Source: an uncultured Chloroflexia bacterium
GTDB lineage: Bacteria > Chloroflexota > UBA6077 > JACCZL01
DNA length: 64,000 nt
Direction: 5' to 3'
Assembly: GCA_963765765.1 (NCBI GenBank)
Contig: CAVXYC010000019.1
Location: 192,001-256,000, forward strand
The first letter of the stretch is position 1. Every line of letters begins with the position of its first letter. Below, piece after piece: positions 7,738 through 40,400 of the stretch. The notes under the pieces are model-generated. The model made no database searches, was not told the origin of the DNA, and saw nothing but the letters and a program-made list of their open reading frames with translations. The position numbers and the translations under genes were made by a program.

Positions 7738-8019
7738 TGCCACGAAACGGCAGTGCGCGGTGGGCATCATGCAACTGACCAAACACCACGACGTACTGAC
7801 CATCCTGGCATGTCAATGGAAGATCTGTCAAGACCTTCGCTGCACTCAGGATGACAGCAGCCGGGGACGATGCCTGATACCTGGCAATCGTCTAACAGCC
7901 CGCCGGCCTGCGGCATCTAGTTGAACAACCACCCGTCCGCTGCTAGGATAGGTTGCAATCACCCCGTAGCAAGTGGCCCTGTGAACGTGGACCGGGCGAG
8001 AGCCCGGCAGGAGCGAACG

Positions 8020-16740: not shown

Positions 16741-17004
16741 GGTGACCTCCTCCTGCGACGGTGCTTGCGTCGCATCTGTCGGGTCATGCGGGCGTTACGG
16801 ATCCTCGATTCGGAGAACATAACACTCTGTCAAGTTGTCCACAACAAAATATCGCGGCATTTCCCTGGTGCCCGCTCTACGGACTTGTTAATGGTTGCCA
16901 GACGTATCACGTCGTTCCTTGTGTCCGCGCCCTTTTACAGGCAATCTGGCGTTTCAATGTTCGGACAGATCGGCCGGTGGTGGCTGATAGCCATGGAGGA
17001 TCAA

Positions 17005-18544
17005 ATGACGCGGACTGTGGAGCGGCTTGGTCGGGTCGTGGGCGTGTTGTTGGGACTGGCCGTGCTTGTTGGCGTCCCCCGGACTTTTCAGTCCGCATGC
17101 AGCGCAGGCGGCGGACGAGGCGGAGCAGCGCACGGCGGCCTATTTCGATACTTCCCGAGGGAATCCGCTTCTGCTCTACGCGTTTCTGCGCGCCATGCCA
17201 AAGGGCAGCGATCTTCACAATCATCCCAGTGGCTCCGAGTACGCGGAGCAGCTTATTTCCTATGCGGCGGAAGACGGGGCGTGCCTGCTGCGGGAGACCA
17301 TGACACTCGTTCCGCCGCCATGTGACGCTGGTGCTGGCAAGCCGCCGGTTAGCGATGCGCTGCGTCAGCCGATGCTGTACAGCCAGATCGTGGACGCCTG
17401 GTCGGTGCGTGGAGTCTTGCCTGGCAGCGATGTCTCCGGCCATGACCAGTTCTTTGCATCGTTCGATCGCTTTGGTCTCACATCATCACGTCGAATCGCT
17501 GACATCATCGCTTCCATCCGCTCGCGGGCCGCGGCCGAGGGGCTCACCTACCTGGAGCTGATGTTTGGCGTGGATCGCGGCGCGGCTAGCGACCTGGGTA
17601 CGCGGATTGGTTGGAACGACGATCTGGCAGCGCTGTACGCCCGTTACGAGTCGGAAGGCCTGAGCGACGTCGTTGCCCAGACGCGCACCGGCCTTGATTC
17701 GATCGAAGTGCGGGTGAGCGAAGTGCTGGCCTGCGGCACCCCCAACGCGGACGCCGGCTGCGCCGTGACCACACGGTATATCCAGACCGGCACGCGGGTG
17801 ATTCCGCCAGAGCGAGTCTTTGCTCAGCTCGCCGCCGGATTTGCGCTCGTCCAATCAGATCCACGCGTCGTCGGCGTAAATCTCGTGGCGCCCGAAGATG
17901 CATATCCGGCACGGCGCGACTACAAGCTGCACATGAGCATGTTCGGCTTCCTGCACGATAGAGCTCCGGGCGTGCCCATTGCGCTCCACGCCGGAGAGCT
18001 AGCTCCGGGTCTGGTACCGCCCGAGGATCTGCGATTTCACATTCGAGACGCCGTGCAGGTGGCGCACGCGCGGCGGATCGGCCACGGAGTAGACGTGTTT
18101 TACGAGGACGATCCGTTTGCACTTATTGCTGACATGGCCCATCGGAAGGTCGCCGTAGAGATCGCCCTCATGAGCAATAAGCAGATCCTCAACGTGGAGG
18201 GCGAGCGCCATCCGTTTCCGCTGTATCGATCGCTGGGCGTGCCCGTCACGCTGGTGACGGACGACATGGGCGTCTCCCGCTCCAACATGACCGAGCAATA
18301 TCAGCTTGCCGTGGAGCAGCACGGATTGGATTACCCCGCGCTCAAGCAGATTGCCCGGGCGAGCCTGGAGTACGCGTTTCTCCCGGGTCCCAGCCTCTGG
18401 CAGGACTTTGGCTCGGCAATGCCGGTGTCCGGATGCTCCGTGCTGGCATCAGCCGAATGTGAGGCATTTCTGCAAGCGAGCGAGCGTGCCCGCGAGCAGT
18501 CGCGACTCGAGCGCGCCATCGAGACATTTGAGCGGCAGTTCTAG
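17005..18544 (+). CDS. Adenosine deaminase family protein, probably secreted; frameshift near 17075
   Basis: MPKGSDLHNH, ALHAGE, RIGHG and TDD motifs; RBS-backed ATG 17005 encodes a signal peptide in another frame. Confidence 0.88.
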
Positions 18545-20236: not shown

Positions 20237-21343
20237 CTACTTCACCAACCGATACACCCTGAAGAAATCATGCTCGATCGGCAAAATCTTCACATCGCTG
20301 AAGCCTGCCTCCTGGGCGTAGCGACGAAGCGTGTCTGGTCGCATGACTGTGCCGGTGCCGGCGGAGGGCGATTCGGAGAGCCCCGCGGGTAGGCAGCACA
20401 GCACGCTGTAGGCGTACATGAGTCGCTCGATCTCGTCGCCGGGTGCTGTGAAGGTCTCGGCCACACGCTCGTCCATGACCAGAACCGTCCCGCCCTCGGC
20501 GCTGAGCAGATGCATAGTGTGGAGCACCTCCACCGGCTGGGAGAGATCGTGAATCATCTCGAAGGCACACACCAGATCGTACCGGCCGGCCAGATCAGGA
20601 TCGGCGGCGTCATGGATGTGGAACTTCACACGGTCGCTGAGTCCCTGGGCCTCGGCGTTACTCCGCGCGAGCTCGACGGACGGCTCGTCCACGTCAAACC
20701 CATCCACCAGCACGTTTGGATACGCCTGTGCGATGCCAATACTCGCCCAGCCGCCGCCGCAGCCGATATCGGCTATGCGCGCTGGGGGATTCGACTGAAG
20801 TCGGGCATGTAGCTCCGGCAGCGAAGGCAGCCACTCCTTTCCTAGGAGGTTCAGGAAGACCGGCCGGTTCATATCCGATTGTGCCTCGCGGCCATCCTCG
20901 CCGTAAGCTGACCACGGCACGCCGCCGCCAGATCGATACGCTGCCAGGAGTATCGGTAGCACCGAAGCCATCGATCCGCCGAAGCGAGACAGCGGCATGA
21001 TGAAATTTAGGCTCTGTGTATCCAGTAATGCCTCGCGATGAGCCATCGGCAGGCGATATTGGCGCGAATCCGGCGCCGCGGCCACATCGTGCACGTCGAT
21101 GATCGCCGCGGCGGCTTGCTGCTCCAGCCACTCACGCGCGTACCGCGGTGCGACGCCGGCGCGTCCGCCAATCTCGGGAGGTGTGGACCACTCCTGCTCG
21201 GCCAGCGCGCGATAGAGTCCCAGACGATCGCCCAAGTAGATCGTCATCATCTCGAACATCCCAATGCCGGACTGGAAAAGCCGACCCACGAACGCGTCGC
21301 GCTGCTCTTCAATGCTCTGAGCTGGTGTCTCTTCTATAGCCAT
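20237..21343 (-). CDS. Class I SAM-dependent methyltransferase with N-terminal wHTH (Rv2258c-like)
   Basis: IYLGDRLGLY, RYAREWL, ADIGCGGG and AGTGTVM motifs. Confidence 0.9.
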   Translation of the reverse strand: MAIEETPAQSIEEQRDAFVGRLFQSGIGMFEMMTIYLGDRLGLYRALAEQEWSTPPEIGGRAGVAPRYAREWLEQQAAAAIIDVHDVAAAPDSRQYRLPMAHREALLDTQSLNFIMPLSRFGGSMASVLPILLAAYRSGGGVPWSAYGEDGREAQSDMNRPVFLNLLGKEWLPSLPELHARLQSNPPARIADIGCGGGWASIGIAQAYPNVLVDGFDVDEPSVELARSNAEAQGLSDRVKFHIHDAADPDLAGRYDLVCAFEMIHDLSQPVEVLHTMHLLSAEGGTVLVMDERVAETFTAPGDEIERLMYAYSVLCCLPAGLSESPSAGTGTVMRPDTLRRYAQEAGFSDVKILPIEHDFFRVYRLVK

Positions 21344-21553
21344 GGTTTGAGGCGCTCCTTCATGCTCTGACGGGCTGTCCAAAGAAGTCCCCCTACGATA
21401 TCGCACATCGCCGCTCGGAGAGCATTCGGAAGGTTGCGCCGTCCCCTGTTGGACTGTGGCGGTCCTTCGCCACTTTCAACAAGCGCGGAGCGCGTTCTGC
21501 TCGGTTCGCCTTGACCATGGACCCGCATTCCAAACGCAGCCACCAAAGTACCC

Positions 21554-21582
21554 TTGACGGACGACTCAACGCGCGCTACTAT
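21554..21582 (+). promoter_or_regulatory. Sigma70 promoter TTGACG-N17-TACTAT for the ArsR-SRPBCC operon
   Basis: Near-consensus hexamers with 17-bp spacer. Confidence 0.65.
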
Positions 21583-21617
21583 ACCAACAAGTTAATTAAC
21601 CCAGTGGAATAATGCCG

Positions 21618-21955
21618 ATGGAACAAGACCACCTCAGCACTGTGTTCTCGGCCCTAGCCGACCCACGAGGAGAGCCATCATCGCCCGCCTGACCTCCGGT
21701 GAGGCCACGGTGAATGAGCTGGCTCAGCCTTTTGCCATGACCCTGCCGGCCGTCTCCAAGCACCTCAAGGTGCTTCAGCGCGCCGGTCTGATCGAGCAAG
21801 GACGCCAGGCCCAGTGGCGGCCCTGTCGATTGAAAGCCGCCCCGCTCAAGGACGCGGCCGAGTGGATAGGGAGCTATCGAGAGTTCTGGGAAGAGAGCTA
21901 CGACCGCCTGGACGAACTGCTCCAGGAGCTAAAAGGAAAGGAAATCGAACGATGA
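21618..21955 (+). CDS. ArsR/SmtB regulator, frameshifted near 21665
   Basis: VFSALADP upstream; VSKHLKVLQRAGLI and QWRPCRL downstream. Confidence 0.85.
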
Positions 21956-22439
21956 CTCAGAGTGACGCCAGCAAATTGACCATCGACCACGCTGTCTGAT
22001 CGCGAGATTCAGATGACGCGCACGTTCAATGCGCCCCGCGAGCTCGTGTTTCGAGCCATGACCGAACCCGATCTCATGGCCCGCTGGTGGGGATCCCGCC
22101 GATCCACCACGGTAATCGAGAAGCTCGAGCTACGACCTGGTGGCCCGTACCGATTCCTCAGTCGCGGCGAAGACGGGACCGAGTACGCATTCCGCGGCGA
22201 GTTCCGGGAGGTCGTCCCGCCCGAGCGCTTCGTCTGGACATTTGAGTTCGAGGGCATGCCCGGCCACGTCTGCCGTGGACACGCATGACACTGAAGGAGC
22301 ATGACGGCCAGACCACCATCACCACCACAAGCCCTTCGACAGCAAGGAAGATCGCGACGGCATGCTCAGCTCCGGCATGGAAGAAGGCGCCGCCGAGTCC
22401 TACGACAAGCTGGACGAGCTGCTGGCCGAGCTGGGCTGA
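21952..22439 (+). CDS. SRPBCC family protein, several frameshifts
   Basis: [27 protein letters not shown] and [17 protein letters not shown] spread over frames. Confidence 0.85.
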
Positions 22440-22485
22440 CGCTACAGAGCCCTAGCCACAATTGCTGAGTGCAGCTCTCGAAAGC

Positions 22486-22571
22486 TGTCATCCGGAGCGC
22501 AGCGAAGGATCTTCCCGCCGGTGTCATGGGATCCCGGTGGGGAAGATCCTTCGCTGCGCTCCAGGATGACA
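22486..22571. repeat. GTCATCC-family palindromic repeat copy
   Basis: tgtcatccggagcgcagcgaaggatcttccc ... gggaagatccttcgctgcgctccaggatgaca. Confidence 0.88.
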
Positions 22572-22794
22572 ATCGCTGTCCTCGGGATGACAATGCCGTC
22601 TAAAACAGGCATGCCGCTAACGGGTATCGCCGATGGCATGTCCTGGCGTCCAACGCATGCGCATCTCAGGGTGGCCAGGATCTACATCGTAAGAGCTCAT
22701 TCGAGCTCGGCGGACGCCTGAAGCTGGGCACTCTCTCTAGGCCGCTGGCTACAATGCCGCCACCTCGTAGCGACACAAACCCGGGAGTGGACGC

Positions 22795-24160
22795 ATGTCA
22801 GACGCGGATCCCAAGGTCCCAGCCGTCGAGCTGGATGAGGAAGCCAGGCAGCTTCAGCTTGACCGGATTAAGGCTGAAGCGCGCAAGACGATCGCCGAGG
22901 CAAGCGATCACCACGGCAAGGCCATCACTCCCACTGTCGGCGACGATGCGCTCAGGAGCACCGTGGACTTAGGCGAAGGGACTGGCTCCACCCTCACCAC
23001 CATCGTTGCCTCCGAGCAGCTTTCCAGAGTGGCTCGCCGAATCGCCGAGGGCGTTGCGGCTGATGCTCGTGACGCACGCGTATTCATCATCGATGATCTG
23101 TCCATCGCGGATGACGATACCGTGTACCTCCTGGTCACCGATCGACCTCGAGTCTTTTCGGGAGGCCCTGGAGAAGGCCCGATCTCCGTTCGCAACACAT
23201 GAGGAGCGCCATGGATGCCTACGCACTTCCATGCCCCTGGCTGCGCTTCCTACCGTCATCCCCGGAAACCTCGTCATTGGTCTCCAGCATGGGCGGGTTC
23301 CTCAAGTCCGAAATATTCAGTGTCATCCACCAGGGTGGCAATAAGCCGCACCGCCTTGCTCGCCACGCTGTTGACGCAGCTTCGCAGGCAGGGAATCCAT
23401 GCGGAGCTTCCCGGACTGCGATTGATCAAAGCTTCCAAGCTCGTCGAATCTCTGCACACCCTGATTCGGATGCGATACGAGCTGGATAACTTGGTCGCGC
23501 GAGCGGAAGCCTATGAGCTCCAGCCGCGAGATCCAGGAGAGCGAGGCGCTCATCAAGTACATCGGCGACCTGCGCACCGCCCACGTCAAGCTGCTCTCTG
23601 AAGGCAAGCTCACCGAAGCCGAGAAGGTGAAAGAGATCATTGATAGGGAAGCAGTCGAGCTCGCGAATCTCACCGGGCAAGAGTCCTTCCAGAAGACTCG
23701 CGCGGCGGCGACCGCCAGGTCGCTCATCACCGCATTCGACGCCTTTCTCACCAGCATCAATACGGCGCCCCAGGGCGGTGGATTTACGCCCGCTCATGGG
23801 CGCCGTACTCGGAGAGCAGCTCCATCCCGGCGGTGACGAGACGTATCTGCTCTATGTGGAGGTGACAGCTGCGGGCGGTGAGGTGATCAATAAGCCCGGC
23901 CTCCGCGGGGAACGAGCCATTCACATCGTTCCTGGGCGCCGTGGAAGCGAGCTACATCCTGGCGTCACCCGACGGAACGATCAAATCGAGCGCACGAGTG
24001 ACCAGGTATGGCTCGGCCACATTCGACTTCAAGAAATGCGAGCTGGACCTGAAAGACCAGGCACGGCGGCCAACGTCGCCCGCAGGGCCCGCCACCCGCG
24101 TGATTCTCGCCTGTCGAAGGCGAAGACGGGACAGGCTGAGACGCCGTCCCACTGGAAGGC
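22795..24160 (+). CDS. Hypothetical helical/coiled-coil protein (~440 aa), multiply frameshifted
   Basis: Protein-like segments chain across ORFs 22795, 23006, 23199, 23215, 23513, 23640 and 23941; GGGAG RBS; end uncertain. Confidence 0.5.
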
Positions 24161-25036
24161 TCAGGACGACTCTTCCGCAAAATCAATCGGGGGCACCACC
24201 AATCCCGTAATCGCTCCGCCGCTGATTGTCATGCACGCCTGTACCTCGGGAATTGTCGCGAAGAAGCGCACTTGGACTTCGCTCGCGGACACGGTGCTGG
24301 CACTGTAGCCCGAGTTGGTTAGTTCCAGCACAATGTTGGCAATGCGCGTCACCGCGACATCGAGCTGATGCTCCACGGCTTCCTTGATCATTCGATCCAG
24401 CACCGCCGCGTGTAAGAGCACGTTGGCGCCGATATTCTGGGGTGGTCCTTGAAACTGCGCCAGCACAGGCAGCGCCGGCCGTCCGGGATCCAGGTTGCCA
24501 ACCAGACGCACGGCTCGTCGATAGGCGAAGGGCCTCCTCAGGAAGAAGAATACGCGTAGATTCCCGCGCACCGTGATGACGTAGTTACCGGCGTTGTCGC
24601 CAGACAGGTCCACGCGCGTGAACTCCAGCGGTGGGGCAGGTCCTGCAGGTGCTGCCCCACCAGCTCGGGCACGCCATCACTCCCGAGTCTGGTTCAGGCT
24701 GAAGCACGCGCCGCTGGCGAGCAATGACACTCGGCCCGTCGGCACAATCGGTGACGGCGGTGGAAACAGCTTCTCCCGCGGTCCCGATCGGAATACCGCG
24801 CCCGGCACGCTGGACTTCTGAATTCGAAATGCCCAGCGGAGCTGCGTTGGCAATGGCGGTACATCAAAGTGCGCCACGCCATTCACCACCGGAGCCCGCC
24901 CCAGGTCTTTGGCAATCCGCCCGTCCGTCTGGACCTGGAATAAATCGACGATCAAATCGTTCAACGGCACCGGCGGATCGCCCAGCGGCACGCTCGGATC
25001 CACCTGCTTCGCGGAAACCGGAATTTGGACGTTCAT
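24161..25036 (-). CDS. Hypothetical protein, probably one gene split near 24680
   Basis: ORFs 24677..25036 and 24161..24613 are collinear and protein-like. Confidence 0.5.
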
Positions 25037-25216
25037 CGGACAGATCCAGTGGAGAGGATTAGCTGCCGATTGCTCGGGACAAGCGGTCTACGGTCAAGTG
25101 TAGTCCCGAGCCTCGCGGGACGCGCGACACCAGAATGGACCGCTGTCGCACACTTCTTTCATTGTATCCGTTGACCCTTCTCTCGACGGCAGCGCTGTCC
25201 GAGATGATCAATCTAA

Positions 25217-25324
25217 TCTCTGTCGTCTTGTCATCCTGAGCCGCGAAGGATCTTCCGGCCGGCTCCATCAGACGCCGGTGGGAAAGATCCTTCGCCGCGG
25301 TTCAGGATGACAAGACGACAGAGA
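25217..25324. repeat. GTCATCC-family palindromic repeat copy with extended stem
   Basis: tctctgtcgtcttgtcatcctgag ... ttcaggatgacaagacgacagaga. Confidence 0.85.
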
Positions 25325-25499
25325 ATGTGACCGGAGCCACAGTCTCTAAAGCCCTGCCCCTTAGAACGACAGCCCCGGTGATCGGGAGCCCCCGCCGCGG
25401 CATAAACACCCCAGCGCGAAAAAATTCCCCGGTCTCCACAGGCCGACTGTTATGCTCAACTCTAATCGCGATCCCTCAACAGAAGGCAGCAACAGATAT

Positions 25500-25916
25500 A
25501 TGGCCGCACAAGCCGCCTACCACATCCAGCCCAACGCTCCCAACCTGCTCATCCGGACTCTCTGGTTCGTCTTAATCGGCTGGTGGCTCGGCGGAGTTCT
25601 CACCGCCATCGCCTGGTTTCTCTTCGTCACCATTATCGGTCTGCCGCTGGGCCTGTACATCGTCAATCGATTGCCCACCGCCATGACCCTCCGCCCTCAA
25701 GAACAGCAGTTCCGAGTGGAGAATGGCATCGCGGTCCAGGGCCAGGAGCAGTTGCCGTTTCTGTTGCGTGCCCTCTACTTCTTCCTGATCGGCTGGTGGC
25801 TCACGGGCGTATGGATGGCCGCCGCCTATGCCTGCCTGACCACCATCATCCTTCTCCCGGTCAGCTTCTGGATGTACAACCGCATCGGCGCGGTGACGAC
25901 GCTGTACCGGTCATAG
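25500..25916 (+). CDS. YccF-domain inner membrane protein, copy 1
   Basis: LWFVLIGWWLG ... TIIGLPLG unit occurring twice. Confidence 0.88.
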   Translation: MAAQAAYHIQPNAPNLLIRTLWFVLIGWWLGGVLTAIAWFLFVTIIGLPLGLYIVNRLPTAMTLRPQEQQFRVENGIAVQGQEQLPFLLRALYFFLIGWWLTGVWMAAAYACLTTIILLPVSFWMYNRIGAVTTLYRS

Positions 25917-26016
25917 CCCGAACGGGGTCCAGAGTGATCCCGGTCAGGCCCGGGACTGGACAGGCAGAGATGCCTCTCCCACCGGATCCGGATGACAAGC
26001 TACGAGCATCGCGGCG

Positions 26017-26445
26017 CTATTCAGACGGAAAGCGTCGCCTAAATTCCTGCGCCAGCGTTTCGCCGGCTGCCTCTACGAGCTTGCCTACTATTGGGTTGAC
26101 GATCACTCCCGTTACGGCTCCCGCGAGCGCGGGGACATTCTTGGCAAACCAGTTCCGCACGTACTCCATTGTGGTGAGGTCGGGCTTCTCCTCCGCCACG
26201 GCCTGCTGTAGCTCGTTCACTCGCTCCAGCGCCGCCCCCTGGAGCTCCGGTGGAGCCTCGACAGCGATCCGAGCACGGACGCCCTCGATGGCGCCGAGCA
26301 GCTCGTTCAACTCACTCTCGGTGACGCCGCTTGACGTCACCGTGGTCTGACTTTGACTGATGCCCTTGCCGATCGCTACCTGGCCACTGATGTCTCCGGT
26401 CACGGTTCCGTGGATGACATCGCCTTCTCGAGATTGTTCGCTCAT
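26017..26445 (-). CDS. Small helical protein with N-terminal GDISGQVAIGKGISQ motif (putative amyloid-motif effector/partner)
   Basis: Intact 142-aa ORF, AGGAGG RBS, 16 nt downstream of the STAND gene stop. Confidence 0.8.
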   Translation of the reverse strand: MSEQSREGDVIHGTVTGDISGQVAIGKGISQSQTTVTSSGVTESELNELLGAIEGVRARIAVEAPPELQGAALERVNELQQAVAEEKPDLTTMEYVRNWFAKNVPALAGAVTGVIVNPIVGKLVEAAGETLAQEFRRRFPSE

Positions 26446-26461
26446 GAGTCCTCCTGATGGG

Positions 26462-28863
26462 CTAGTTGATGATGACTCGACCGGGGGTTGGAGTGCGTGT
26501 CGGCGTCGGCTGAAGTACGCGTGTTGGTGTCGGCGTCGTCTGAGGTACGCGTGTTGGTGTTGGCGTCATCGTCCGCGTTGGTGTCGCCGTCGCCGCGGCG
26601 GGAAGCTCCACCTGGAGCGCCGCCGAGGTGTTGTTGGACTCGTCTCCTTCCTGCACGCGGCAGGTCGGCGGCTGAAACTCCTCGCCGGCACAGCTATCCG
26701 CGGTGATCTGGAGCGCAACCGATTGACCCGCCAGCGAGAGCGGCAGTACGATGGTGCCGGCAAACGAGACGGCGCTGCCGGCTGCCAGGGGGCCATCGGT
26801 GAACGGGTAGCTGGGGGAGCGCTGTCCGGGAACCACAAACGGCGCCTCGAAGGTATCGCGGCCGACGCTTCCGATCCGCCCGGTGAAGCTGGCTGAGAGC
26901 TTGAAGATTGGAGCGGGCTGTCCCCCCTGATTTCGAACATCGACACGAACCGGCACGAGGAGACGTTCATCCTGCTGCGTAAATCCGGGCGCCGCGCCAG
27001 ATGTAGGCCTGCCCGTGAGCTCGAATCGCTGGGCGATCACGTCAGGCGCCGCAACGCTGCTCGGCGAGACCGTCGGGCCCGCTCCGTCCCGCGTCGGTGA
27101 GGCCGTGGGCGTGCGTGGGGCTACGGCCGTAGTAGGTGTAGGGGTGGTGAGGCCGACCACAACGGCTACGGGCGTGCTGGAGGCGACGAGCGCCACGGCG
27201 CTGGGCGTTGTGGGCGGGGTTGGAGTGGGCACTATCGGATCAACGGGCGCGTCCGAAACGCCAGAGCGCCAGCGCCCCCACTCCGACGATGGCGGCCAGC
27301 CCGAGCAGCAGTTTGCTGGTGGTCCAATGCGCTTGCTGGCCGTTGGTCGGCGCCTGCGCTGGCGGGACGTCCAGTGCCAGCGTAAGGTTGTGGCGCGTGG
27401 CGGCCGCGCCGGCATCGTCACCCAGAGCCTCGCGCAGTCGAAGCGCGCTATCGAGGCTTGACTGCGCGGTGCCAACATCGTTCAGACAGAGCGCACGGGT
27501 GCCAAGCTGGTGCAGCGCCCAGGCTTCGGCCGCCTGATCGCCCACGGCGCGCGCCGACTCAAGCTGCCACCCCAGCACGCGGCTCCAGGCCCCCCAGGAG
27601 CCGGACAGCGCAAATGCTGCCTCGGCGTGGCGCGCAAGATCGAGCGTTTCGCTCGGCATATTCGCACCGGCGCCCCATTCCAGCATGCGCAGGATCGCAT
27701 CGCCGTTCGCCTGGATGTCAGATGGGGTGCGCGTCTCGTCTCTGGCCCAGCCGGTGATCTGGCTGAGTGTCTCCTGGGGCTGCGTGCTCGACGCAAGCAC
27801 GGCCGTCTCATACTCGGAGAAGCTGCCGGCCTGGCGATAGCCTCCCGCGTCCGCCTCCACCAGCCCGCGAGCGACAAGGGAGTCCAGCGCGGCCTGGGGT
27901 TCCAGGCCGGTCAACGGGCCCAGCATGTCTGCCGTGAGACGTATCCCCGCGGGAGCGGACAGCGCGCTCAGGACGCGGCGCTCGTCGGGCGGCAGCGCGG
28001 CCATTGCCAGCCCCGCCGGTGTCGTCGCGGAGCCGGCCGCCTGCATGCGCTGGAGCATCGCGGCCGCGGTGGTTTGCTCATCGCGCATCATCGCGGCCGC
28101 CTGCAGGATGCGCAGCGGGTGGCCGTCAAGCGCCAGGCACAGATCCCGCGCTGACGGGAGCTCATCGTCGCGCAGCTCGCGTCCCAGGCCGCGCTCCAGC
28201 AAGCGTAGTGCCGCGTCGATCGGCAGCCCATGAATGGGAATGGAACGACCTTCCCCCAGGAGCCTCGGGGCGGTGCCGGACAGGACTATCGAGCACGCTG
28301 GCGCCGCGTCCAGGAGCGCGTTCACGTCATCGTGCTCCAGCTCGCAATCGTCGATGACTAGTAGGAAGCGCTTTTCCTGGAGGGCCGAGCCGGAGCTCCG
28401 CAGCGCTCGGCTTGTACGGATTCGGAGACTCGTAGAACCCGTCGAACACCGTCTGGAGAAGATCGTCCACCGATCGCCCGGCCACCAGCGCCTGGCCCAG
28501 GCAGATGACGCCGTCCGAGTACGCGGGCAGCCCGGTCGCGTTTGCCAGGTGGCGCAGCAGGGCGCTCTTCCCGATCCCGGCCTCGCCAGTGAGCTCCACG
28601 GGCGCCAGCTCGCCCAGGCCCTCCAGAGCGCCCGCGAGCTCCGCCTCTCGATCCAGCAGGTCGCGGAACGGTCGGAACCGGAACGGCACCGGCGTGACGC
28701 GTGGCTTGGGTCGAGGCGCCTCAGCCGCCGGCCCCAGGTTCACCACGCCACCATGATTGGTGAGCTGCAGCGTCTGGACCTGGAAGATGTCTTTCCCGAC
28801 CGCGATCTGCCCGCTAACATCGCCGCGGATAACGGCATCGATCGTGTCAGATGTTCCTGACAT
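26462..28863 (-). CDS. Membrane-anchored STAND/NLR-like ATPase (N-terminal motif, P-loop, TPR, TM, CARDB, Pro/Thr tail); frameshifts near 28388 and 27265
   Basis: Walker A LTGEAGIGKS, Walker B FLLVIDD, TPR-like EAWALHQLG, TM LLLGLAAIVGVGALAL, CARDB-type VRNQGG and VQEGDESNN. Confidence 0.78.
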
Positions 28864-29157
28864 GGGCAGCGCCCTCTCATTGATCGGGGGAACTGTGCGA
28901 ATTCAGCCCCCGTAGTGCGCCGCGGATCGCTCAATGTGCGTCAGGATGCCGGGGGAGTCGCGCTAGCTCCAGTCTACGCGGCGCGTGGAATGACGTGAAG
29001 CCCCGTGTGGGTGAGCGCCAAGGGGCCGACTGCCTTCCGCTCTGACCCAGACGGAAATCATTGAAGCATCGATCAGGCAATTACGATTCCTTGCAGGCAC
29101 GAAGGCGCTACTATGCTCACTGAGTCCCCCGAAACAATTATTCGCAGGTGGCCAGAA

Positions 29158-29575
29158 ATGTCCGATCAGCCCTCCGTACGATATTCAACCCAGTGCCCCC
29201 AACATCATCATCCGCATCCTATGGTTCGTTCTCATTGGATGGTGGCTCGGGGCCATCGTCTCGGCGATCGCCTGGTTCCTGAACATCACGATCATCGGGC
29301 TCCCGCCGGGCCTCTATCTGATAAACCGACTCCCCACCATCATCACACTCCGCCCGCAAGAGCAGAACATCCGAGTGGAGCACGGTGTGGTCAAGCACGG
29401 CCAGGACCAGCAACCGTTCATGTTGCGCGCGCTCTACTTTGCGCTCGTCGGCTGGTGGCTCTCCGGCCTCTGGCTGGTCGCCGCCTACGCCGCCCTGATG
29501 ACCGTCATTTTGATCCCCGCCAGCTTCTGGATGTACAACCGCATCGGCGCGGTGACGACGCTCTATCGGTCGTAG
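29158..29575 (+). CDS. YccF-domain inner membrane protein, copy 2 (frameshift near 5' end)
   Basis: Paralogous to copy 1; ends SFWMYNRIGAVTTLYRS identically. Confidence 0.85.
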
Positions 29576-29624
29576 CCTGACTATGGTGAGACCTGCCGCT
29601 CACCATCTGGAACGGCAACGAAGG

Positions 29625-30810
29625 TCAGCTCACGTGAGCCGCTTGACCCTGGAGGAACTTCCAGCATCAGGCGGCTGACGGCCTCGGGCTGTTCCTGCTG
29701 GACCCAGTGCCCGGCTCCTTCCAGCAGGTGGATGCCCCGCAGATCGGTGCAGATCTGTGTCGCGCATCGCCTCCAGACGCCCGGCCCGCTGGTAGACGCC
29801 CCAGTCGCTCGTACCGCTGATGAACAACGAGGGCACGTCGATGGTGCGGTCGGAGTACACCCGCAGCTCAGCCGAATAGGCGGGGTCCGTTTGCAGGCGG
29901 TACGAATTGAGACCGCCCTGGAAGCCCGTGCGCGTGTACTCATCCGAGCACACGCGCAGCTCCTCCTCCGTGAGCCACTGATTCGCCGCGATCTCCTCGG
30001 GCGTGGGCATGTCCAGGGCCACGTTCTCCGGCATCGTCTTGTCGAGGTCCATGACGTAGTAGCGCGGCATCTTGGCGAGCTCGGTTGCGCTGAACGCCGT
30101 CAGCGGGTGCGGCGCGTTTCCCTTCCAGTCGGCGCTCTTCACGTGGTAGTAGGCGCGCAGGAAATCGTGGATGCCCTGCTTCGCACCCATCCACTCGTCG
30201 TTCGCTTCGCGTCGCGCGTTGTACCAGTGGTAGTGCTTGCGCGGTTGGGGCAGCGCCGCCAGGTCGTCGTGGACGCTCGGGCCCGCCGGGGCTGGGGCTT
30301 CGGCGGCTCGTTCGCGGTGTTGAACGGGAACGCTGGCGCGCCCTCGAACGGCGCCGTCATCAGCACCATCGAGCGAAACACGTCCGGTCGGATCAGCGTG
30401 GACCAGCCCGTGACTCCCGCGCCGAAGTCATGCCCCACAATCATCGCCACGTTGCGATACCCGAGCGCGTAGACCAGCCCGAGGGTATCGCGCACGCGCT
30501 CCATGGGCCGCCACGGCCAGAGGCTATCGTCAAAGGTGACGTCGGTGCCGCCCGAGCGACCGTAGCCGCGATGATCCGGTGCCACCACGTGGTAGCCGGC
30601 CTCGGCCAGCGGCAGCATCACCTTGCGCCAGCTATACGCCAGCTCCGGATAGCCGTGCATCAGGAGCACCAGTGGCCGCCCGGGCTCCTCGAAGCCGGCC
30701 TCCAGGATGTGCATGGTGATGCCGTTGTTGTTGTCCACGAAGCGGGAGCGAATCCCGACGGGGATGGTGGTCTGGCCGTAGGCGACGTCGCGGTTGATGG
30801 TTCCTGACAT
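29625..30810 (-). CDS. Alpha/beta hydrolase (epoxide hydrolase-like), several frameshifts
   Basis: LMHGYPELAYSW, GHDFGA nucleophile elbow, GAGHWVQQE. Confidence 0.88.
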
Positions 30811-31401
30811 GGTCCCCTCGTCGCGCGTAGAGCGTCCTGAAGATGCGCTCCCGATTATGGTGGCTACAGGTGTCTCCTGCACCGTGAGTGCGACGTACCG
30901 CCGCTCATTCGGTCCGACGATATCGAGCCGGCAACTCGTAGAGCGGGCATCCCTGCCCGCTGCGGCCGTCTCTCCCAATCTGCCCAGGCCAACGGTCTCG
31001 CGCCATCAACCAACACTGGGAGCGCCGCCGTTTCGGCGGCCCGGCCGTGGAGGCCGCGCTCTCAAAGACTCCTCATGACAGTTGCGGCTTCCGTGAAGGT
31101 GCGGCCTCGACGGCCGGGCCCGCCGGGGACAGCGGCGGTCCCAGTCTCAAGCAGGCGCACCCTCGGTCGCATTGCTATGCTCGATCATCGGTTCCTAGAG
31201 CAAATCGGATCTAGCACTCAGTCCGCCTACGTCCTTGAGCCGCGCGCCAAGATAGCCGCCACTTACGCCGGCCTCATGACCGTCGACCACATTCCAGTTG
31301 GCTTCAGTGCGATCGTCGCAAGACAAAGGCTGGCCCGTCGAATGAGTACAATCGCCACGGTCTTCTTAACTTATTGGCATTGAAACCGTCTGATTACATC
31401 C

Positions 31402-31929
31402 GTGGCTATTGAATATGCGGTTCTCCGCAAGGATAACCCTCGCTCGCCTGAGACTCTCGCCATAGTTGAACAGTTGGCGCAGCAGTTCCATGCATACTTA
31501 GCAGGTACCGAGATTCTAGCTGGAATAGCATCTGTACACAGGCTCGGCGCATCCAGTGTCGAGGTGCAGACCATCATCCAACCCGGCGCTGAAGCGCTGG
31601 GCTTTGTGTCAGAGAAGAGGGGGCTGTTTCTAGACTATCCCGTCGCTGCACTTAGACCTGACTACTTCCTGGCCGTACGGGACTCGGGAATAATCCTAGA
31701 GGTGGAGCGTGGGAAAACCACGATCAACAACATGGATATTCTCGATTTCTGGAAGTGTCATATTTGTGAGAGCGCGGACTACTTGTTTCTTCTCGTTCCC
31801 CAGCTTAGGACAACGCTGAATGGCCGAGTTGTCATGCGCCCATTCAACCACGTTTACAATCGGTTGAGCACTTTTTTCGCACCCAGGAACTACGTCAATG
31901 TTGAAGCAGTCTTCTTGTTCGGCTACTGA
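31402..31929 (+). CDS. Putative PD-(D/E)xK nuclease, restriction-endonuclease-like
   Basis: LRPDY ... ILEVERGK motif; more AT-rich than flanks. Confidence 0.6.
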   Translation: MAIEYAVLRKDNPRSPETLAIVEQLAQQFHAYLAGTEILAGIASVHRLGASSVEVQTIIQPGAEALGFVSEKRGLFLDYPVAALRPDYFLAVRDSGIILEVERGKTTINNMDILDFWKCHICESADYLFLLVPQLRTTLNGRVVMRPFNHVYNRLSTFFAPRNYVNVEAVFLFGY

Positions 31930-32011
31930 TGGGCCGAGTGACACTCGCTTTGCGAGACTGCGGGGCGCAGCTTCGCCGCCGAGCACTCTCACGCTGGTAG
32001 AATTCATACCA

Positions 32012-32189
32012 ATGGAAACCACCAAGCAGCGCGCCATTCAAGCCCTGAGCACGTTGCCTGACGATGCCACGATTGATGATGCGATCGATCAGCTGTGCTT
32101 CCTCGCAAAAGTGGACAAAGGCCTCCGCGACTCGGACAGCCGGGCAGCCGAGCTCTCATGAGGAGATTCGCGAACAGTTCCTGGCGTGA
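32012..32189 (+). CDS. Putative type II antitoxin (frameshift near 3' end)
   Basis: METTKQRAIQALSTLPDDATIDDAIDQLCFLAKVDKGLRD ... SHEEIRE; stop overlaps toxin start (GTGA). Confidence 0.75.
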
Positions 32190-32467
32190 GACGCCTGCGT
32201 TGGGCTGATCGGGGCCCGACGAGATCTCGGCGCGATTAGGGACTTCGTGAGCGGCGATTCATCCCAGTACGCTCCCTTATTCTGGCAAGGTTGATTGCGC
32301 GGGCGGTCCGAATTCCCCGAGGCTGGCAGGGTTGTCCCATCTCAGATCCCCAGATTCGCGAGATTATCGTTCGTCCATACTGCATCGTTTACCGTTTTGT
32401 CGGTGATGACGAGACCCATCTCATCACAGTGCACCACGGAGCCAGGCAGTTTCCCGAGACTCTCTAA
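32186..32467 (+). CDS. RelE/ParE family toxin, frameshifted or degraded
   Basis: Read across frames: LRWADR..RDLGAIRDFV ... FPEAGRVVP ... IREIIVRPYCIVYR ... VHHGARQ. Confidence 0.75.
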
Positions 32468-32582
32468 CTTGCCCTTCGGGATCTGCGCCGCAACCGTCGC
32501 TGACCTCATCCCCATAAGTCCGGTACTTTTCGCGCAATGCTGGACTCCAGTATCGACCCGCATGAGCTAGGGAGTCTCAGCC

Positions 32583-32745
32583 ATGGACCGCTCAACGCGT
32601 CTACGTTCTTCAGCCGTGCGGACCTAACCTGCTCAGAACCCTCTAGTTCGTTTTCATTGCCGGGTGGCTAGGCGGACTTGCTTCGGCTGTCATCTTGTTA
32701 CTGTTCATCACGATCATTGGTCTGCCGCTGGGCCTCTGTGCGACC
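32583..32745 (+). pseudogene. Truncated third YccF-like copy
   Basis: VLQPCGPNLLRTL*FVFIAGWLGGLASAVILLLFITIIGLPLGL: in-frame TAG replaces the Trp codon, then truncation. Confidence 0.75.
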
Positions 32746-32803
32746 TGGGCCAAAATCCTCGTCTAAATTCGCCCTCACTTCGGCCGCTTAACCAGCCCGC
32801 ACC

Positions 32804-33948
32804 TCAGAATCGCGCCAAACATCCTCGAGCAAAGTCTCGAGGGCTTGGGGCCCGCCTCTTGCGATTTGAGATGTCTGATGCAGCTCGCTGTACAGCTTCC
32901 GCATATGCCACCGCGAGTTCATGATGGGGCGACGCGAGACTGACCTGTGTTTCTGACGGCGGATCTGTGGTCATATCGACCACCGTGATGTCCAACTCGA
33001 TTTCGTCATCCTCATCTGACGCACCTTCGGAAGTGCCCGATCTAGCGGAAAGCACAGAGTCAACCTCATAGCTGAACTCGTTAAGTCGGGTTGCTGCCAG
33101 GAGCCGACCTCCTTGGTCAGCGGGAGAGCTTCGATGTGTGTCGCGAATACGAGGAAGAGCGTGTAGAAGTCGGACTTTTTTCTCCATCGAAGTAACTTGA
33201 CGTTAGGAAGCACCTGCCTAAGCTCACCAAGAACTTCAGCGAACAATTCTAATAGTCTATCGCTGTCATCGAATTCGTCTTCATAGGTTCTATACCATGA
33301 GTCAATTGATTGCTTCTTGTTTTGTATGCCATGGAGACTTGCAACAGCAATCTCGCTAACAAACTCACGATCTAACATTCTTCTGATGTCATTAGCGCTG
33401 AATATCCCAAAGTTAATCCAGATAGGATTATCAGATATCGTATCGATAACTTGTATGAATTTCCCCCAATAAGTTGAATGACGCAACTCTTGCTGATTTA
33501 ATGCGATAGTATTTCTATTTAACCTCTGAAAAATCGTGCTCAAAATATCTCTAGAAAGATCGGGTAATATTCTGACAACAAAGTTATACCCAAAGAGCCT
33601 CCTCCTGTCTTCAGAAGATAGATCATCAAAGGACATGTCGGGCCAATCTCCGGAATCTTGGCTTCGTATCTCAAATTGACCCTCGATGAACTCAAGGCAG
33701 GTCCTAACCCTTTGCTGGCCGTCGACAACGATGAATCGCTCTTTCCCCTCCTCGTCGACCAGCTCTTGAATGTAGAGTTCGGGAACTGGATAGCCCTGAA
33801 GTATGGTGTCGATTAAGAGGCTTTTCTGTGGGGTAAGCCAGACTGGATTTCTTTGGAATGGCGGAGCAATCTCTAGTTCTCCGGCGTCGGATCTAGTCTT
33901 CAGCCAGCTGACCGTGCGATTAGTGTTCCGGAGGAAATCCTGAGCCAT
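32804..33948 (-). CDS. DUF262 (ParB/Srx-fold, GmrS-like) protein; frameshift near 33110
   Basis: PPFQRNPVW, VVDGQQR and FQRLN..LNQQELR motifs; C-terminus YAEAVQRAASD in ORF 32804..33187. Confidence 0.88.
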
Positions 33949-38636: not shown

Positions 38637-39017
38637 CTAGCCGGAGAGGCGGTCATGCTCCACTAGCCAGCGGGCGAAGGCGAGGTGTTGTTCGTCCGCG
38701 GGTGTTTCGTCGCTTTCTGGTGAGAGCTCTATCTCGGGCAGGCTTGCTGTTCGCGGTGAGTCCCAATCAGACTCGGATGCGCTGACTGTCATCGAATCGA
38801 CGTCGTCTGCCGGGCGATCAAGCGTCAGCGTGCGTTGGGTGCCGACGCTCGCGGCAGTGACGGGTTCGGGCTGGCGTTCGCCGGACAGGTACGTGAACAG
38901 GATGGCCAGAGCGAACTCCGCCAGGATGACAACCACAACGGCCAACAGTGCGAGCTGCAGCGCGTTAGCGATGGTGAATAGCTCGGATCCGGATTGAGCT
39001 GTGTCACTCGAGTACAT
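38637..39017 (-). CDS. Hypothetical single-pass membrane protein
   Basis: N-terminal hydrophobic helix, acidic tail ending FARWLVEHDRLSG; AAGGAG RBS. Confidence 0.6.
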   Translation of the reverse strand: MYSSDTAQSGSELFTIANALQLALLAVVVVILAEFALAILFTYLSGERQPEPVTAASVGTQRTLTLDRPADDVDSMTVSASESDWDSPRTASLPEIELSPESDETPADEQHLAFARWLVEHDRLSG

Positions 39018-39106
39018 GGAGTATCTCCTTCACTCCGTGCGTTACGCGGAGGCCCGGATACGACCGGTGGCGGGTAGAAGGCTGGAATCTGCGGCGGGGC
39101 CTTGGT

Positions 39107-40233
39107 GTGCTCCGTACGGTGCTGTCACCGGAATCGGAGCCTGGCACCACCTGGAGTCGGCGGACGCGCATGGCCACCGGGGCGACCTCAATGGCTACAG
39201 GCTCGGCCGGTCTCCTGAGTACGGATTCGGAATCCTGGCCCAGAAATGGAGCGGCACGCCCGATCCCTCAATCAGGACGAACATTGGCTACCAGATCGAT
39301 CTGGAGCGGATGGGCGAGTTCAGCGAGCCGCTGAAGCGGCTCGAGCCGCTGATAATCGATAACGTGTGGGGCGATTCGCCCGGTGCTCGGGCCTGGCGGC
39401 ACACAGTCCAGGATCTTTTGGACGTACCGCCGATCCCGCTCATCAAGTCGTTCATGACTGTGGGTATGGGGGTGCAAGGGCGGCTGGTGGGCATTCTCAC
39501 CTCTCACACGTTCAGGCGGGATACTTCACCCCGCGGCACGCCAAGGTGGCTCAGGCGGTGGCGCGGCAGGCTGCCATCGCCATCGAAAACGCGCGTCTCT
39601 ACCAGCAGGCGCAGTCGCTGGCCATTCTGGAAGAGCGTCAACGGCTGGCCCGCGAGCTTCATGACTCCGTCTCTCAGGCGCTGTACGGGATTGGTCTTGG
39701 CGCCAAGACAGCCCGGGCATTGCTTGAGCGCGATCCTCAACAGGCGACGGACGCGGTGGATTATGTGATTGGCCTGGCGGAGGCCGGGCTTACCGAGATG
39801 CGGGCGCTCATCTTCGAGCTGCGTCCGGACACGATCGAGCGGGAGGGCCTCGTAGCGGCGCTGGACCGCCAGGTTCAGGCCGCCCAAAGGCGACACGAGA
39901 TTCGGGTGACCACCAGTCTCGGAACGGAGCCGGACATCCCACTAGCGGTCAAAGAATCGCTCTACCGCATCACCCAGGAGGCGCTGCAGAACGTGGTCAA
40001 GCACGCGCCGGCCAGCGCCGTGCAAGTCACGCTGCAGCAAAGCGCCGATGAGCTGACGCTGGAGATCCGCGACGACGGTCCAGGTTTCGATTCCACGCTG
40101 CCGTATCATGGGCACCTGGGTTTGAGATCGATGCATGAGCGCGCCAATCGCCACGGCGGCCGGCTGAGAGATCGTCTCTGCGCCCGGAGCGGGCACGCGC
40201 ATTTATGCCCGGATTCCGCGTGGGGCTGCCTAG
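39107..40233 (+). CDS. GAF-HisKA_3 sensor histidine kinase, frameshifted; 5' end uncertain
   Basis: AIAIENARLY, EERQRLARELHDSVSQ, QEALQNVVKHA, DDGPGF and GLRSMHER motifs. Confidence 0.85.
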
Positions 40234-40400
40234 GATGGACTCTACCCAGTCGGCCTGTCCGAGGGACCAGACCCAAACGCTGTCATAGTCAATGGCCGCG
40301 TTGTCATCCTGAGATGCGCCATGCGCTCCGCGCACCAACACACCAATGAAAATATCATCACGTCTTGTCAGTCGTCTGCTGACTTAGTCTATCTTCATGA

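Follow-up and report, generated by a model that had tools for sequence, protein, structure and literature searches.

The DNA considered here is a stretch of 64,000 nucleotides (nt) from an uncultured Chloroflexia bacterium (GenBank assembly GCA_963765765.1, contig CAVXYC010000019.1, positions 192,001 to 256,000), hereafter called the window, in whose coordinates all positions are given. Its minus strand carries a cassette of two genes. The first codes for a long receptor-like protein that can be traced through three open reading frames (ORFs) in three different frames, namely 28863-28327 (178 amino acids, aa), 28325-27240 (361 aa) and 27478-26462 (338 aa), and the second, immediately downstream, codes for a protein of 142 aa. 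The third ORF (27478-26462) represents the true coding frame only from approximately 27247 downwards, and when the receptor is read through both frame breaks the three parts contribute approximately 159, 380 and 259 residues to a protein of approximately 798 aa. Its parts follow one another in the order N-terminal motif, NB-ARC-like NTPase, winged helix-turn-helix (wHTH)/TPR-like region, predicted transmembrane (TM) helix, Pro/Thr stalk, CARDB-like ectodomain and Pro/Thr tail (Table 1).

The three ORF pieces align end to end on an intact homolog of 784 aa, P0001, with 75, 67 and 52 % identity, and the second ORF alone matches residues 181-538 of this protein with E = 1.1e-138. P0001 is continuous at both break points and has no stop at the second. 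Another homolog, P0271, is of similar length (804 aa) and is 60 % identical to P0001 over 98 % of the latter. As the pieces are collinear with intact P0001, a chance join of the ORFs can be dismissed. The initial annotation of this DNA had joined the same three ORFs across two frameshifts into a protein of approximately 800 aa, which agrees with this alignment, and the motifs it had named were all found in the sequence, with their coordinates now fixed. Of its two indel positions, the first lies at 28387 as it had claimed, while the second falls at approximately 27245-27249 rather than at 27265.

Table 1. Features of the two-gene cassette, in the order of transcription
Feature	Position in the window	Strand	Basis
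Whole receptor gene	26462..28863	-	ORFs and collinearity with intact P0001 (784 aa)
N-terminal beta-type motif, residues 7-43, core GDVSGQIAVGKDI...HGGVVNL	28735..28845	-	conserved in the family
Pro/Arg-rich linker from motif to NTPase	28666..28731	-	direct reading
Walker A, GEAGIGKS	28564..28587	-	sequence; weak Pfam AAA_16/NACHT/nSTAND matches across it
First frame break, one extra base between ...AAELRL and ALQEKRFLLVIDD	28387	-	three-frame reading and soil-metagenome contigs
Walker B, FLLVIDD	28347..28367	-	sequence
GHPL motif, helical/winged-helix part of the NB-ARC-like module	28113..28124	-	sequence (GHPLRILQAA from 28124)
TPR-like helical end of the cytosolic module, AEAWALHQLGTRALCL...TRHNL	27384..27530	-	family conservation
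Single predicted TM helix, LLLGLAAIVGVGALALW	27261..27311	-	hydrophobicity and position in the family
Second frame break, one extra base in or beside a CCC run	27240..27250 (base ~27245-27249)	-	three-frame reading
Pro/Thr/Ala/Ser-rich stalk, 67 % P+T+S+A	27047..27247	-	composition; equivalents in homologs
CARDB-like beta-sandwich ectodomain, two conserved cysteines	26600..27046	-	AlphaFold2, Foldseek and homologs
VRNQGG	26921..26938	-	sequence
DSC...C.VQEGDESNN	26630..26698	-	sequence
Pro/Thr-rich C-terminal tail, 30-nt tandem units, end VIIN	26465..26599	-	repeats D2/D3; 54 % P+T
Gene of the 142-aa partner	26017..26445	-	starts 16 nt past the receptor stop, behind AGGAGG
Motif in the 142-aa protein	26347..26424	-	residues 8-33
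Conserved Gly-rich hydrophobic C-terminal part of the 142-aa protein	26029..26151	-	alignment

A motif shared by the two proteins links the receptor to adjacent effector-type genes. Residues 8-33 of the 142-aa protein repeat the N-terminal motif of the receptor (GDISGQVAIGKGI versus GDVSGQIAVGKDI), and a profile of this motif, built from 30 receptors and run against the 6.5-Mb genome of the organism (ORFs of at least 40 aa, E<=0.01), matched the receptor and its neighbor only, i.e. 2 of 99,334 six-frame ORFs. The association recurs in other genomes. In the 79 receptor loci described below, 67 receptor ORFs have at least 500 nt of downstream sequence, and in 19 of these 67 a motif-bearing ORF starts within 700 nt. 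The partner is the same small protein in 12 of the 19 cases (L013, L018, L019, L027, L036, L038, L039, L044, L045, L046, L065 and L066, with L036 and L038 being identical). Three partners are caspases (Peptidase_C14) whose C-terminus carries the motif together with a zinc ribbon (L021, L041 and L043), one has two copies of the motif followed by EAD7 (L025), and three are another receptor-type ORF (L011, L028 and L054), with L054 additionally possessing an ORF that combines the motif with TIR_2 and L011 a caspase that bears a weak version of the motif. Only the caspases among these partners bear the motif towards the C-terminus, and the one in L041 matches the EACC1-associated caspase type of NCBIfam below threshold, with 93.2 bits where 140 are required. 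In two acidobacterial loci (L027 and L045) both copies of the motif carry the same insert of two residues. One motif pair gave a weak match to bactofilin (E 0.0064), a hint of a possible beta-helical repeat that would fit the alternating hydrophobic/Gly pattern of the motif.

The small protein belongs to a conserved family of its own: 511 of 789 candidates are relatives at E<=1e-3, and every one of these is annotated as 'hypothetical'. Most members are 141-145 aa in length, beside a subgroup of 211 aa, and the mean column identity in the family alignment A4 is 66 % across phyla. Conservation peaks in the C-terminal WF.KN.P.LAGAVTGVVVHPIVGKLVEAAGDALA.EFRRRF, in which the best 19-mer scores 1.69. 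AlphaFold2 predicts the first 37 residues to be disordered and places six helices over residues 43-138 (predicted local distance difference test score, pLDDT, 70.7). No NCBIfam model matched the protein. A lead from the ESM Atlas to TCAD2 (0.91) was set aside, being unconfirmed by Pfam and bearing a name absent from the main text of PMC7159879. The 142-aa protein is probably the executioner of the receptor.

The cytosolic half of the receptor shows the signatures of an NTPase of the STAND class. In an alignment of 30 homologs the N-terminal motif is near-invariant at G18, Q19, A21, G23, Q28, G38 and V41, and the linker that follows it has the consensus P..P.PRPRP.PV..RPRPF. The same alignment shows G96, G98 and K99 of Walker A and D171 of Walker B to be invariant, as are P249 and L250 of the GHPL motif, with G247 and H248 near-invariant. 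We take a GxP motif to be a defining feature of the helical/winged-helix modules of NB-ARC-type STAND proteins, and the Pfam NB-ARC matches of the homologs span GHPL, reaching to approximately position 213 of the 248 in the profile. The most conserved stretch of the entire family is the TPR-like end of the module, which supplied the pattern for the genome scan described below and which gives sub-threshold matches to Pfam TPR_12 in P0003, P0004 and P0042. The pieces from the window match AAA_16, NACHT and nSTAND in Pfam, all below threshold. Against the Pfam NB-ARC model (threshold 23.5), P0001 falls just short with 21.8, and P0003 (31.8), P0004 (27.1), P0010 (24.1), P0007 and P0012 (both approximately 31) lie above, as do further members; the family thus borders the cut-off of this model.

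The predicted helix LLLGLAAIVGVGALALW, which reaches a Kyte-Doolittle 19-mer score of 2.06, draws its weight from its conserved position in the family. A hydrophobic 19-mer (score of at least 1.6) follows TRHNL in 142 of the 150 best representatives, at a median distance of 29 residues (range 13-77); the eight representatives without one (P0041, P0086, P0095, P0125, P0135, P0146, P0149 and P0150) include some that are short or just below the cut-off. The 15 residues before the helix contain 256 Lys and Arg residues in total versus 154 after it. The part behind the helix has a median length of 372 residues, with at least 150 in 128 of the 142 helix-bearing representatives and fewer than 150 in the other 14. 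Intact homologs share the order of N-terminal motif, NTPase, wHTH/TPR-like region, one TM helix, Pro/Thr stalk and ectodomain.

What follows the helix is variable among the homologs. A Pfam survey of P0001-P0052 (E<=1e-6) recovered behind it CARDB (P0015, P0016, P0019, P0039, P0045), LysM (P0015, P0027, P0034, P0046, P0048, P0051), CBM96 (P0008, P0009, P0019), fn3 (P0007), Big_9/cadherin (P0017, P0050) and, in 11 proteins, immunoglobulin (Ig) domains of the ASH/HYDIN/Cep192 type. Other members of the family contain SBP_bac_1 (P0309), PASTA (P0347, P0351), PAN (P0320) or PKD (P0324) domains, all located C-terminal of approximately residue 540. Since domains of extracellular type lie behind the helix, and given the charge bias around it, we argue for an orientation with the N-terminus inside and the C-terminus outside the cell. 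The single-pass architecture proposed by the initial annotation is upheld by the helix in 142 of 150 representatives and by the order of parts common to the intact homologs, and the swapping of extracellular domains between homologs, which it had suggested looking for, is seen for domains of the CARDB, LysM, PASTA, CBM96, solute-binding-protein (SBP), PAN, PKD and cadherin/Ig types.

For the ectodomain encoded in the window, the resemblance to CARDB is apparent from the predicted fold, and by sequence it becomes visible through relatives only. AlphaFold2 modelled the core at 26600-27061, on an alignment of 16 domain sequences, as an all-beta sandwich (pLDDT 91, predicted template-modelling score 0.86), and Foldseek returned the CARDB domain of PF1109 twice among the best matches (3idu_A, E 5.2e-4, TMt 0.61; 2kl6, E 1.1e-3, TMt 0.60). 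Similar ranks are reached by Ig-like domains of a generic kind, from integrins, GH3 enzymes and a Bacillus lipoprotein. The ectodomain piece from the window has no Pfam match at E<=1; among the homologs, P0004 and P0010 match Pfam CARDB (PF07705, cut-off 22.7) with sub-threshold scores of 17.8 and 16.8 bits, covering profile positions 2-99 of 101, and the domain at residues 857-967 of P0019, which jackhmmer relates to that of the window, overlaps a CARDB match of 34.7 bits, above threshold. The version of the domain with two cysteines is present in 18 of the 150 representatives. Hence 'CARDB-like' appears to be a fair name for this predicted domain, and the assignment in the initial annotation finds support in the fold model and its matches to 3idu and 2kl6. 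The tail behind the domain has a similar counterpart in P0001, ending in VVVIN.

Logan contigs from soil metagenomes (four runs, each of a different study) were aligned to positions 26400-28900; no RNA run was among the sequencing runs listed. Two of the contigs depart from the window around the stalk. In X1 record 1 (26587-27092; one contig, depth 4.3) the tail is fused straight to the stalk, with 504 nt skipped in frame and no CARDB-like domain. X6 record 24 (27112-27241) matches the stalk and turns into unlike sequence exactly at the second break; in that sample a similar stalk may be joined to a different upstream part. The former contig points to recombination in the repeats coding for Pro/Thr-rich sequence as a way in which ectodomains are lost or exchanged.

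As judged from sequence, the receptor is a member of a large, unnamed family of NB-ARC-like STAND proteins. The second ORF has 2752 representatives as relatives at E<=1e-3, 1512 at E<=1e-10 and 546 at E<=1e-30, which are annotated in their sources as 'hypothetical', 'NB-ARC domain-containing', 'LysM repeat protein', 'PASTA domain-containing' or 'AAA family ATPase'. When one genome per species was scanned, 127 of the 131 candidate stretches were confirmed, and 79 loci were kept. By their record titles, these loci stem from Chloroflexota (Anaerolineae and Thermoflexia), many filamentous Cyanobacteria (including Nostoc and Scytonema strains), Actinomycetota and Acidobacteriota, with further single loci in metagenome-assembled genomes (MAGs) of Armatimonadetes, Dadabacteria and the archaeon Nitrosopolaris. 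The last of these (L066) is a receptor and small-protein pair in a contig binned as an ammonia-oxidising archaeon, which reflects either gene transfer or a binning error. Among other architectural variants, P0002, P0009 and P0013 have an N-terminal CHAT (caspase-like) domain or zinc ribbons before the NTPase, and L011 has tandem receptor genes followed by a caspase gene. Where relatives match PADLOC, these matches are limited to their caspase, TIR and CHAT parts. The genome of the organism has no paralogue of the second ORF or of the ectodomain; a genome of the same genus gave no match with the query used, and in the genomes of 40 relatives the matches were weak and confined to the TPR-like part (best E 2.7e-6). 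The GC content of the cassette is 68-70 %, as against 60-62 % in its surroundings.

Whether the receptor gene is functional depends on the nature of its two frame breaks. In the three-frame reading both changes go in the same direction, each amounting to one surplus base and a +1 shift. P0001 reads AAELRLALGSKRFLL without interruption at the position of the first break, and dropping base 28387 gives ...AAELRLALQEKRF..., which is exactly the reading of P0001. The second break lies between ...ALWRFGRA and VDPIVPTPTPP, just ahead of the TGA at 27242-27240. Base 28387 is missing in two of the soil contigs (X1 record 5, 518 nt with 10 mismatches, and X3 record 14, 151 nt with 1 mismatch), which are 98-99 % identical and come from two studies, and X1 record 1, approximately 92 % alike, lacks one base at 27249, such that, as read from its differences to the window, helix and stalk lie in one frame. 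Further decay is not seen in the three receptor pieces, their motifs being intact and their interiors free of in-frame stops. Other genes of the window are split as well: an Amidohydro_3 gene falls into 7921-8835 (+; profile positions 1-176) and 8747-9724 (+; positions 319-472), and an Abhydrolase_1 (alpha/beta-hydrolase) gene at 29581-30978 (-) ends at profile position 116 of 245 and, by a reading of the translations, continues in two other frames. The assembly hence looks indel-prone. Because other genes in the window are split alike, no further decay is seen and related contigs lack the extra bases, we regard the two one-base insertions as likely assembly errors rather than true mutations, and the receptor gene is probably intact in the organism. 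Programmed +1 frameshifting was rejected, since the homologs show no interruption at either position. Two further genes, for an adenosine deaminase (16761-18544) and a histidine kinase (39001-40349), may likewise be split.

We consider it moderately probable that the cassette constitutes a two-gene module with a role in immunity or conflict, composed of an outward-sensing, single-pass STAND receptor of the NB-ARC type and a small effector recruited via the shared motif. In such a module the ectodomain would bind a surface, cell-wall or contact cue outside the cell. Nucleotide-dependent oligomerisation is what defines STAND proteins, and clustering driven by the ligand outside and passed on through the helix, as in other single-pass receptors, would favor this oligomerisation of the NTPase inside. 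The N-terminal motifs, drawn together in this way, might form a beta-sheet nucleus to which the copy of the motif on the 142-aa protein is recruited and on which it is perhaps templated. The initial annotation had likewise supposed a surface or cell-contact cue, oligomerisation at the membrane and nucleation of the N-terminal motif; the idea of nucleation gains indirect support from the motif at the start of the downstream gene, which that annotation had overlooked, and from the caspase, TIR and EAD7 proteins that bear it at other loci. The bundle of helices in the 142-aa protein would then open, with its Gly-rich hydrophobic helices attacking the membrane, and the caspase or TIR partners at other loci would be activated by proximity. 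As the predicted outcome, the cell would stop growing or die in an immune or conflict response. A bolder and more tentative form of this proposal, which we hold to be possible but doubtful, is that one polypeptide unites the surface pattern receptor and the intracellular NLR (nucleotide-binding leucine-rich repeat receptor), which are separate in plants: an outside ligand on an exchangeable ectodomain would lead to oligomerisation of the nucleotide-binding oligomerisation domain and this to a prion-like beta-motif templated on executioners. Candidate ligands would be a wall fragment, a phage particle or a neighboring cell, and the executioners would be a new small membrane-attacking protein, caspases and TIR enzymes. 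If this were true, infection or attack would be sensed before anything enters the cell.

Several results weigh against the proposal of an outward-sensing module with a motif-recruited effector. Most receptor loci (48 of 67) have no motif-bearing gene downstream, and PADLOC-DB 2.0 returned 0 families for P0001, P0004, both pieces from the window and the small protein. Within loci, cognate motifs are 0.54 identical versus 0.51 for non-cognate ones, a value equalled or exceeded in 82 of 10,000 permutations; the difference is too small, and the loci are too related, for a claim of pair-specific co-evolution, which we do not make. As to the putative executioner, Foldseek found nothing for the 142-aa protein at E<=0.001, and Pfam searches with 11 members of its family at E<=10 gave only a weak DUF4404 match (8 of 11, best E 0.0021). 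The best VIA-align match, to a helical part of the Sr35 resistosome chain (Z 8.1), was left unused, as it lies in the noise range for helical bundles. Concerning topology, 83 of 1000 shuffles of the Ala/Leu-rich second ORF attain the helix score of 2.06, so that this score alone proves little, and the stalk contains a second, moderately hydrophobic stretch (AVALVASSTPVAVVVGLTT, 1.81) that is absent from P0001; if it spanned the membrane, the CARDB-like domain would face inside. As to the integrity of the gene, the contigs without the extra bases derive from other samples and strains, and run X6 covered 28387 without the omission, the contigs behind that depth not being among those listed.

The last two points bear directly on the alternative that the insertions are real and the receptor is a true pseudogene, a decaying remnant beside a small gene that is still active or not. 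Two independent breaks in one gene, the origin of the corrected contigs from other samples, the want of a genomic paralogue able to complement, the foreign GC content of the cassette, and its absence, with the query used, from the genome of the same genus would all fit such a remnant; yet the pieces retain their motifs and are free of in-frame stops and further decay, the window contains at least two more genes split in this way, which points to an indel-prone assembly, and near-identical DNA from two studies is in frame at 28387. On balance we think a pseudogene unlikely, without treating the chance as small. The initial annotation had itself allowed that the stop at 27240 might be genuine, with the CARDB part a separate gene. 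The locus would then encode a tail-anchored receptor and a secreted CARDB-like protein, and it is true that the assembled ORF ends two codons after the basic stretch behind the helix (WRFGRAR and stop) and that a GTG is available in the downstream frame at 27232-27230. The separate protein would, however, begin inside the Pro/Thr stalk, with no signal peptide or ribosome-binding site seen in the sequence, whereas no break occurs here in P0001 or the other homologs examined, the frame stays open in a related contig, and 128 of the 142 helix-bearing representatives have at least 150 residues fused behind the helix, all of which makes a genuine stop very improbable.

The remaining alternatives accept an intact membrane receptor and differ in what it senses or what it serves. 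The ectodomain might be just an anchor to the wall or surface layer, with the TPR-like region sensing the signal, e.g. a phage protein, in the cytosol, as happens in Avs and other STAND receptors. Many of the ectodomains are indeed of wall-binding, glycan-binding or adhesin-like types (LysM, PASTA, CBM96, CARDB, cadherin/Ig), the TPR-like end is the most conserved part of the cytosolic module, 14 of the 142 helix-bearing representatives have fewer than 150 residues behind the helix, and one environmental relative apparently lacks the CARDB-like domain. We nevertheless deem an anchor rather unlikely: known STAND receptors sense through variable repeats, whereas the helical part in the cytosol is short and strongly conserved here, the variability sits in the ectodomain, as expected of a ligand-facing end, and the solute-binding-protein ectodomain of P0309 is a ligand binder. 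Somewhat less probable still is that the module is not immune at all and serves development, kin recognition or envelope stress in bacteria that form filaments or aggregates, the small protein then being an adaptor or regulator and not a killer. The prevalence of filamentous Cyanobacteria, Chloroflexota and Actinomycetota among the loci, the suggestion of cell-cell contact in the cadherin-like and Ig-like ectodomains, the zero PADLOC matches, and the lack of recognised phage or mobile-element genes directly beside the cassette are in line with such a role. Against it, the motif partners elsewhere are classic conflict effectors and adaptors (caspase, TIR, EAD7), including the L041 caspase with its sub-threshold EACC1-associated match, the distribution is patchy and the GC content foreign, and a GmrSD-type restriction gene lies approximately 4 kb off.

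That gene, a GmrSD_N (DUF262-type restriction) gene at 32971-33948 (-), is located in a patch of 46-51 % GC and is possibly another acquired defence gene. The cassette itself is flanked by two paralogues of the YccF family, at 25452-25916 (+) and approximately 29102-29575 (+), which are 71 % alike over 300 nt. The second has no ATG, GTG or TTG before 29375, and its frame is nevertheless open and conserved from approximately 29102; five related genomes yielded no YccF. An inverted repeat of 29 nt (25217-25245 / 25296-25324), whose arms are 97 % complementary and separated by 50 nt, is located upstream of the first yccF. Over the approximately 4 kb at 21400-25400 there are only short overlapping ORFs without a Pfam match, including a plus-strand chain at 22795-24308 in changing frames, and this region may be a badly broken gene or non-coding DNA. 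Searches for Rfam families at 21000-33000, tRNAs at 15000-40000 and terminator-like sites at 25850-29250 returned none, and one weak promoter-like site was found at 29164-29137.

If the proposed module holds, STAND signaling could be driven from outside the cell, and the family would offer a simple system for the study of signal transfer through a single helix. Its scale adds to this, as it comprises thousands of representatives whose variable end, behind the helix, consists of wall-, glycan- and ligand-binding domains. The shared motif, which ties the receptor to a very conserved 142-aa protein and to caspase and TIR effectors, would provide a handle on recruitment or templating. On account of its two probably artefactual breaks, the copy in the window is of lesser value for such purposes.

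The bacterial NLR-like receptors that have been characterised recognise phage proteins within the cell. In common with STAND receptors such as Avs and bNACHT, the protein described here has a P-loop NTPase, a winged-helix/helical part, a putative C-terminal sensing end and an N-terminus that would couple to effectors; unlike bNACHT, its module is NB-ARC-like rather than NACHT, and it has no PADLOC model. The initial annotation had stated that known bacterial STAND receptors are cytosolic and sense through C-terminal repeats. As regards location this is too absolute, as transmembrane forms are in print in the parts of two preprints consulted. Kibby et al. (10.1101/2022.07.19.500537) describe a bNACHT class with 'TM regions', i.e. 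multiple TM segments, for which intramembrane or periplasmic sensing is proposed, and Evans et al. (10.1101/2025.11.14.688446) list 'transmembrane STAND ATPases' among the sensors of Pepco-protease modules. As portrayed in those parts, the printed class has multiple TM regions, sometimes inside the NTPase, and none of the membrane-spanning forms is characterised there. In the receptor described here, by contrast, a single helix ends the cytosolic module and leads to a stalk and folded domains of extracellular type.

The coupling to the small protein recalls amyloid-motif signaling from bacterial NLRs to adjacent effectors, as presented in the examined portions of 10.1101/2020.01.06.895854, and the Bab/Agp phage defence of Escherichia coli, as presented in those of 10.1101/2024.11.07.622273. 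As in NWD2/HET-S, BASS/Bell and Bab/Agp, on the evidence of these portions, the N-terminal motif of the NLR is repeated in an adjacent, collinear small protein with a helical domain that is a proposed membrane-active executioner. In the BASS/Bell and HET-S effectors, as depicted there, the motif is C-terminal, behind the Bell or HeLo domain, whereas in the 142-aa protein it is N-terminal and the hydrophobic part C-terminal. A further difference from those amyloid pairs is that the present motif, known here through sequence comparison, also occurs on caspase, TIR and EAD7 proteins. In this respect it resembles the effector-associated domains (EADs) treated by Kaur et al. (eLife 2020, PMC7159879), of which the sections seen cover the EAD logic of effector recruitment and the TM segments and wall-binding domains of other NTPase conflict systems. 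Like the EADs of those sections, it is a small non-enzymatic module present both on the core NTPase and on separate effectors, including caspase and TIR, which it would recruit, and one partner has EAD7 behind the motif. EADs are characterized in those sections as folded domains, mostly alpha-helical with three being mixed alpha+beta, in contrast to the present motif of approximately 25-40 residues, which is Gly/Val/Gln-rich and of predicted beta-type. The examined parts of PMC7159879, including two supplementary files, do not name the motif, and these two files contain none of the CARDB, LysM, PASTA and TM architectures.

The family, as defined by the NB-ARC-like module, one helix, a stalk, a folded ectodomain, the motif and the 142-aa partner, was not found described in the literature searched; the supplements of the Kibby and Evans preprints, which lay outside that search, may list members. 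A full-text search found the motif strings in no paper, with consensus logos of BASS1-11 existing as figures only, and a search on transmembrane or membrane-anchored NLR or STAND proteins yielded one passing mention for bacteria. In PknB-type PASTA kinases and plant LysM receptor kinases, an outside binding domain is connected by one helix to an inside module that acts by oligomerisation. The receptor described here appears to follow the same plan of outside domain, helix and inside module, with a STAND NTPase and an adaptor motif, rather than a kinase, as the part that would act within the cell.

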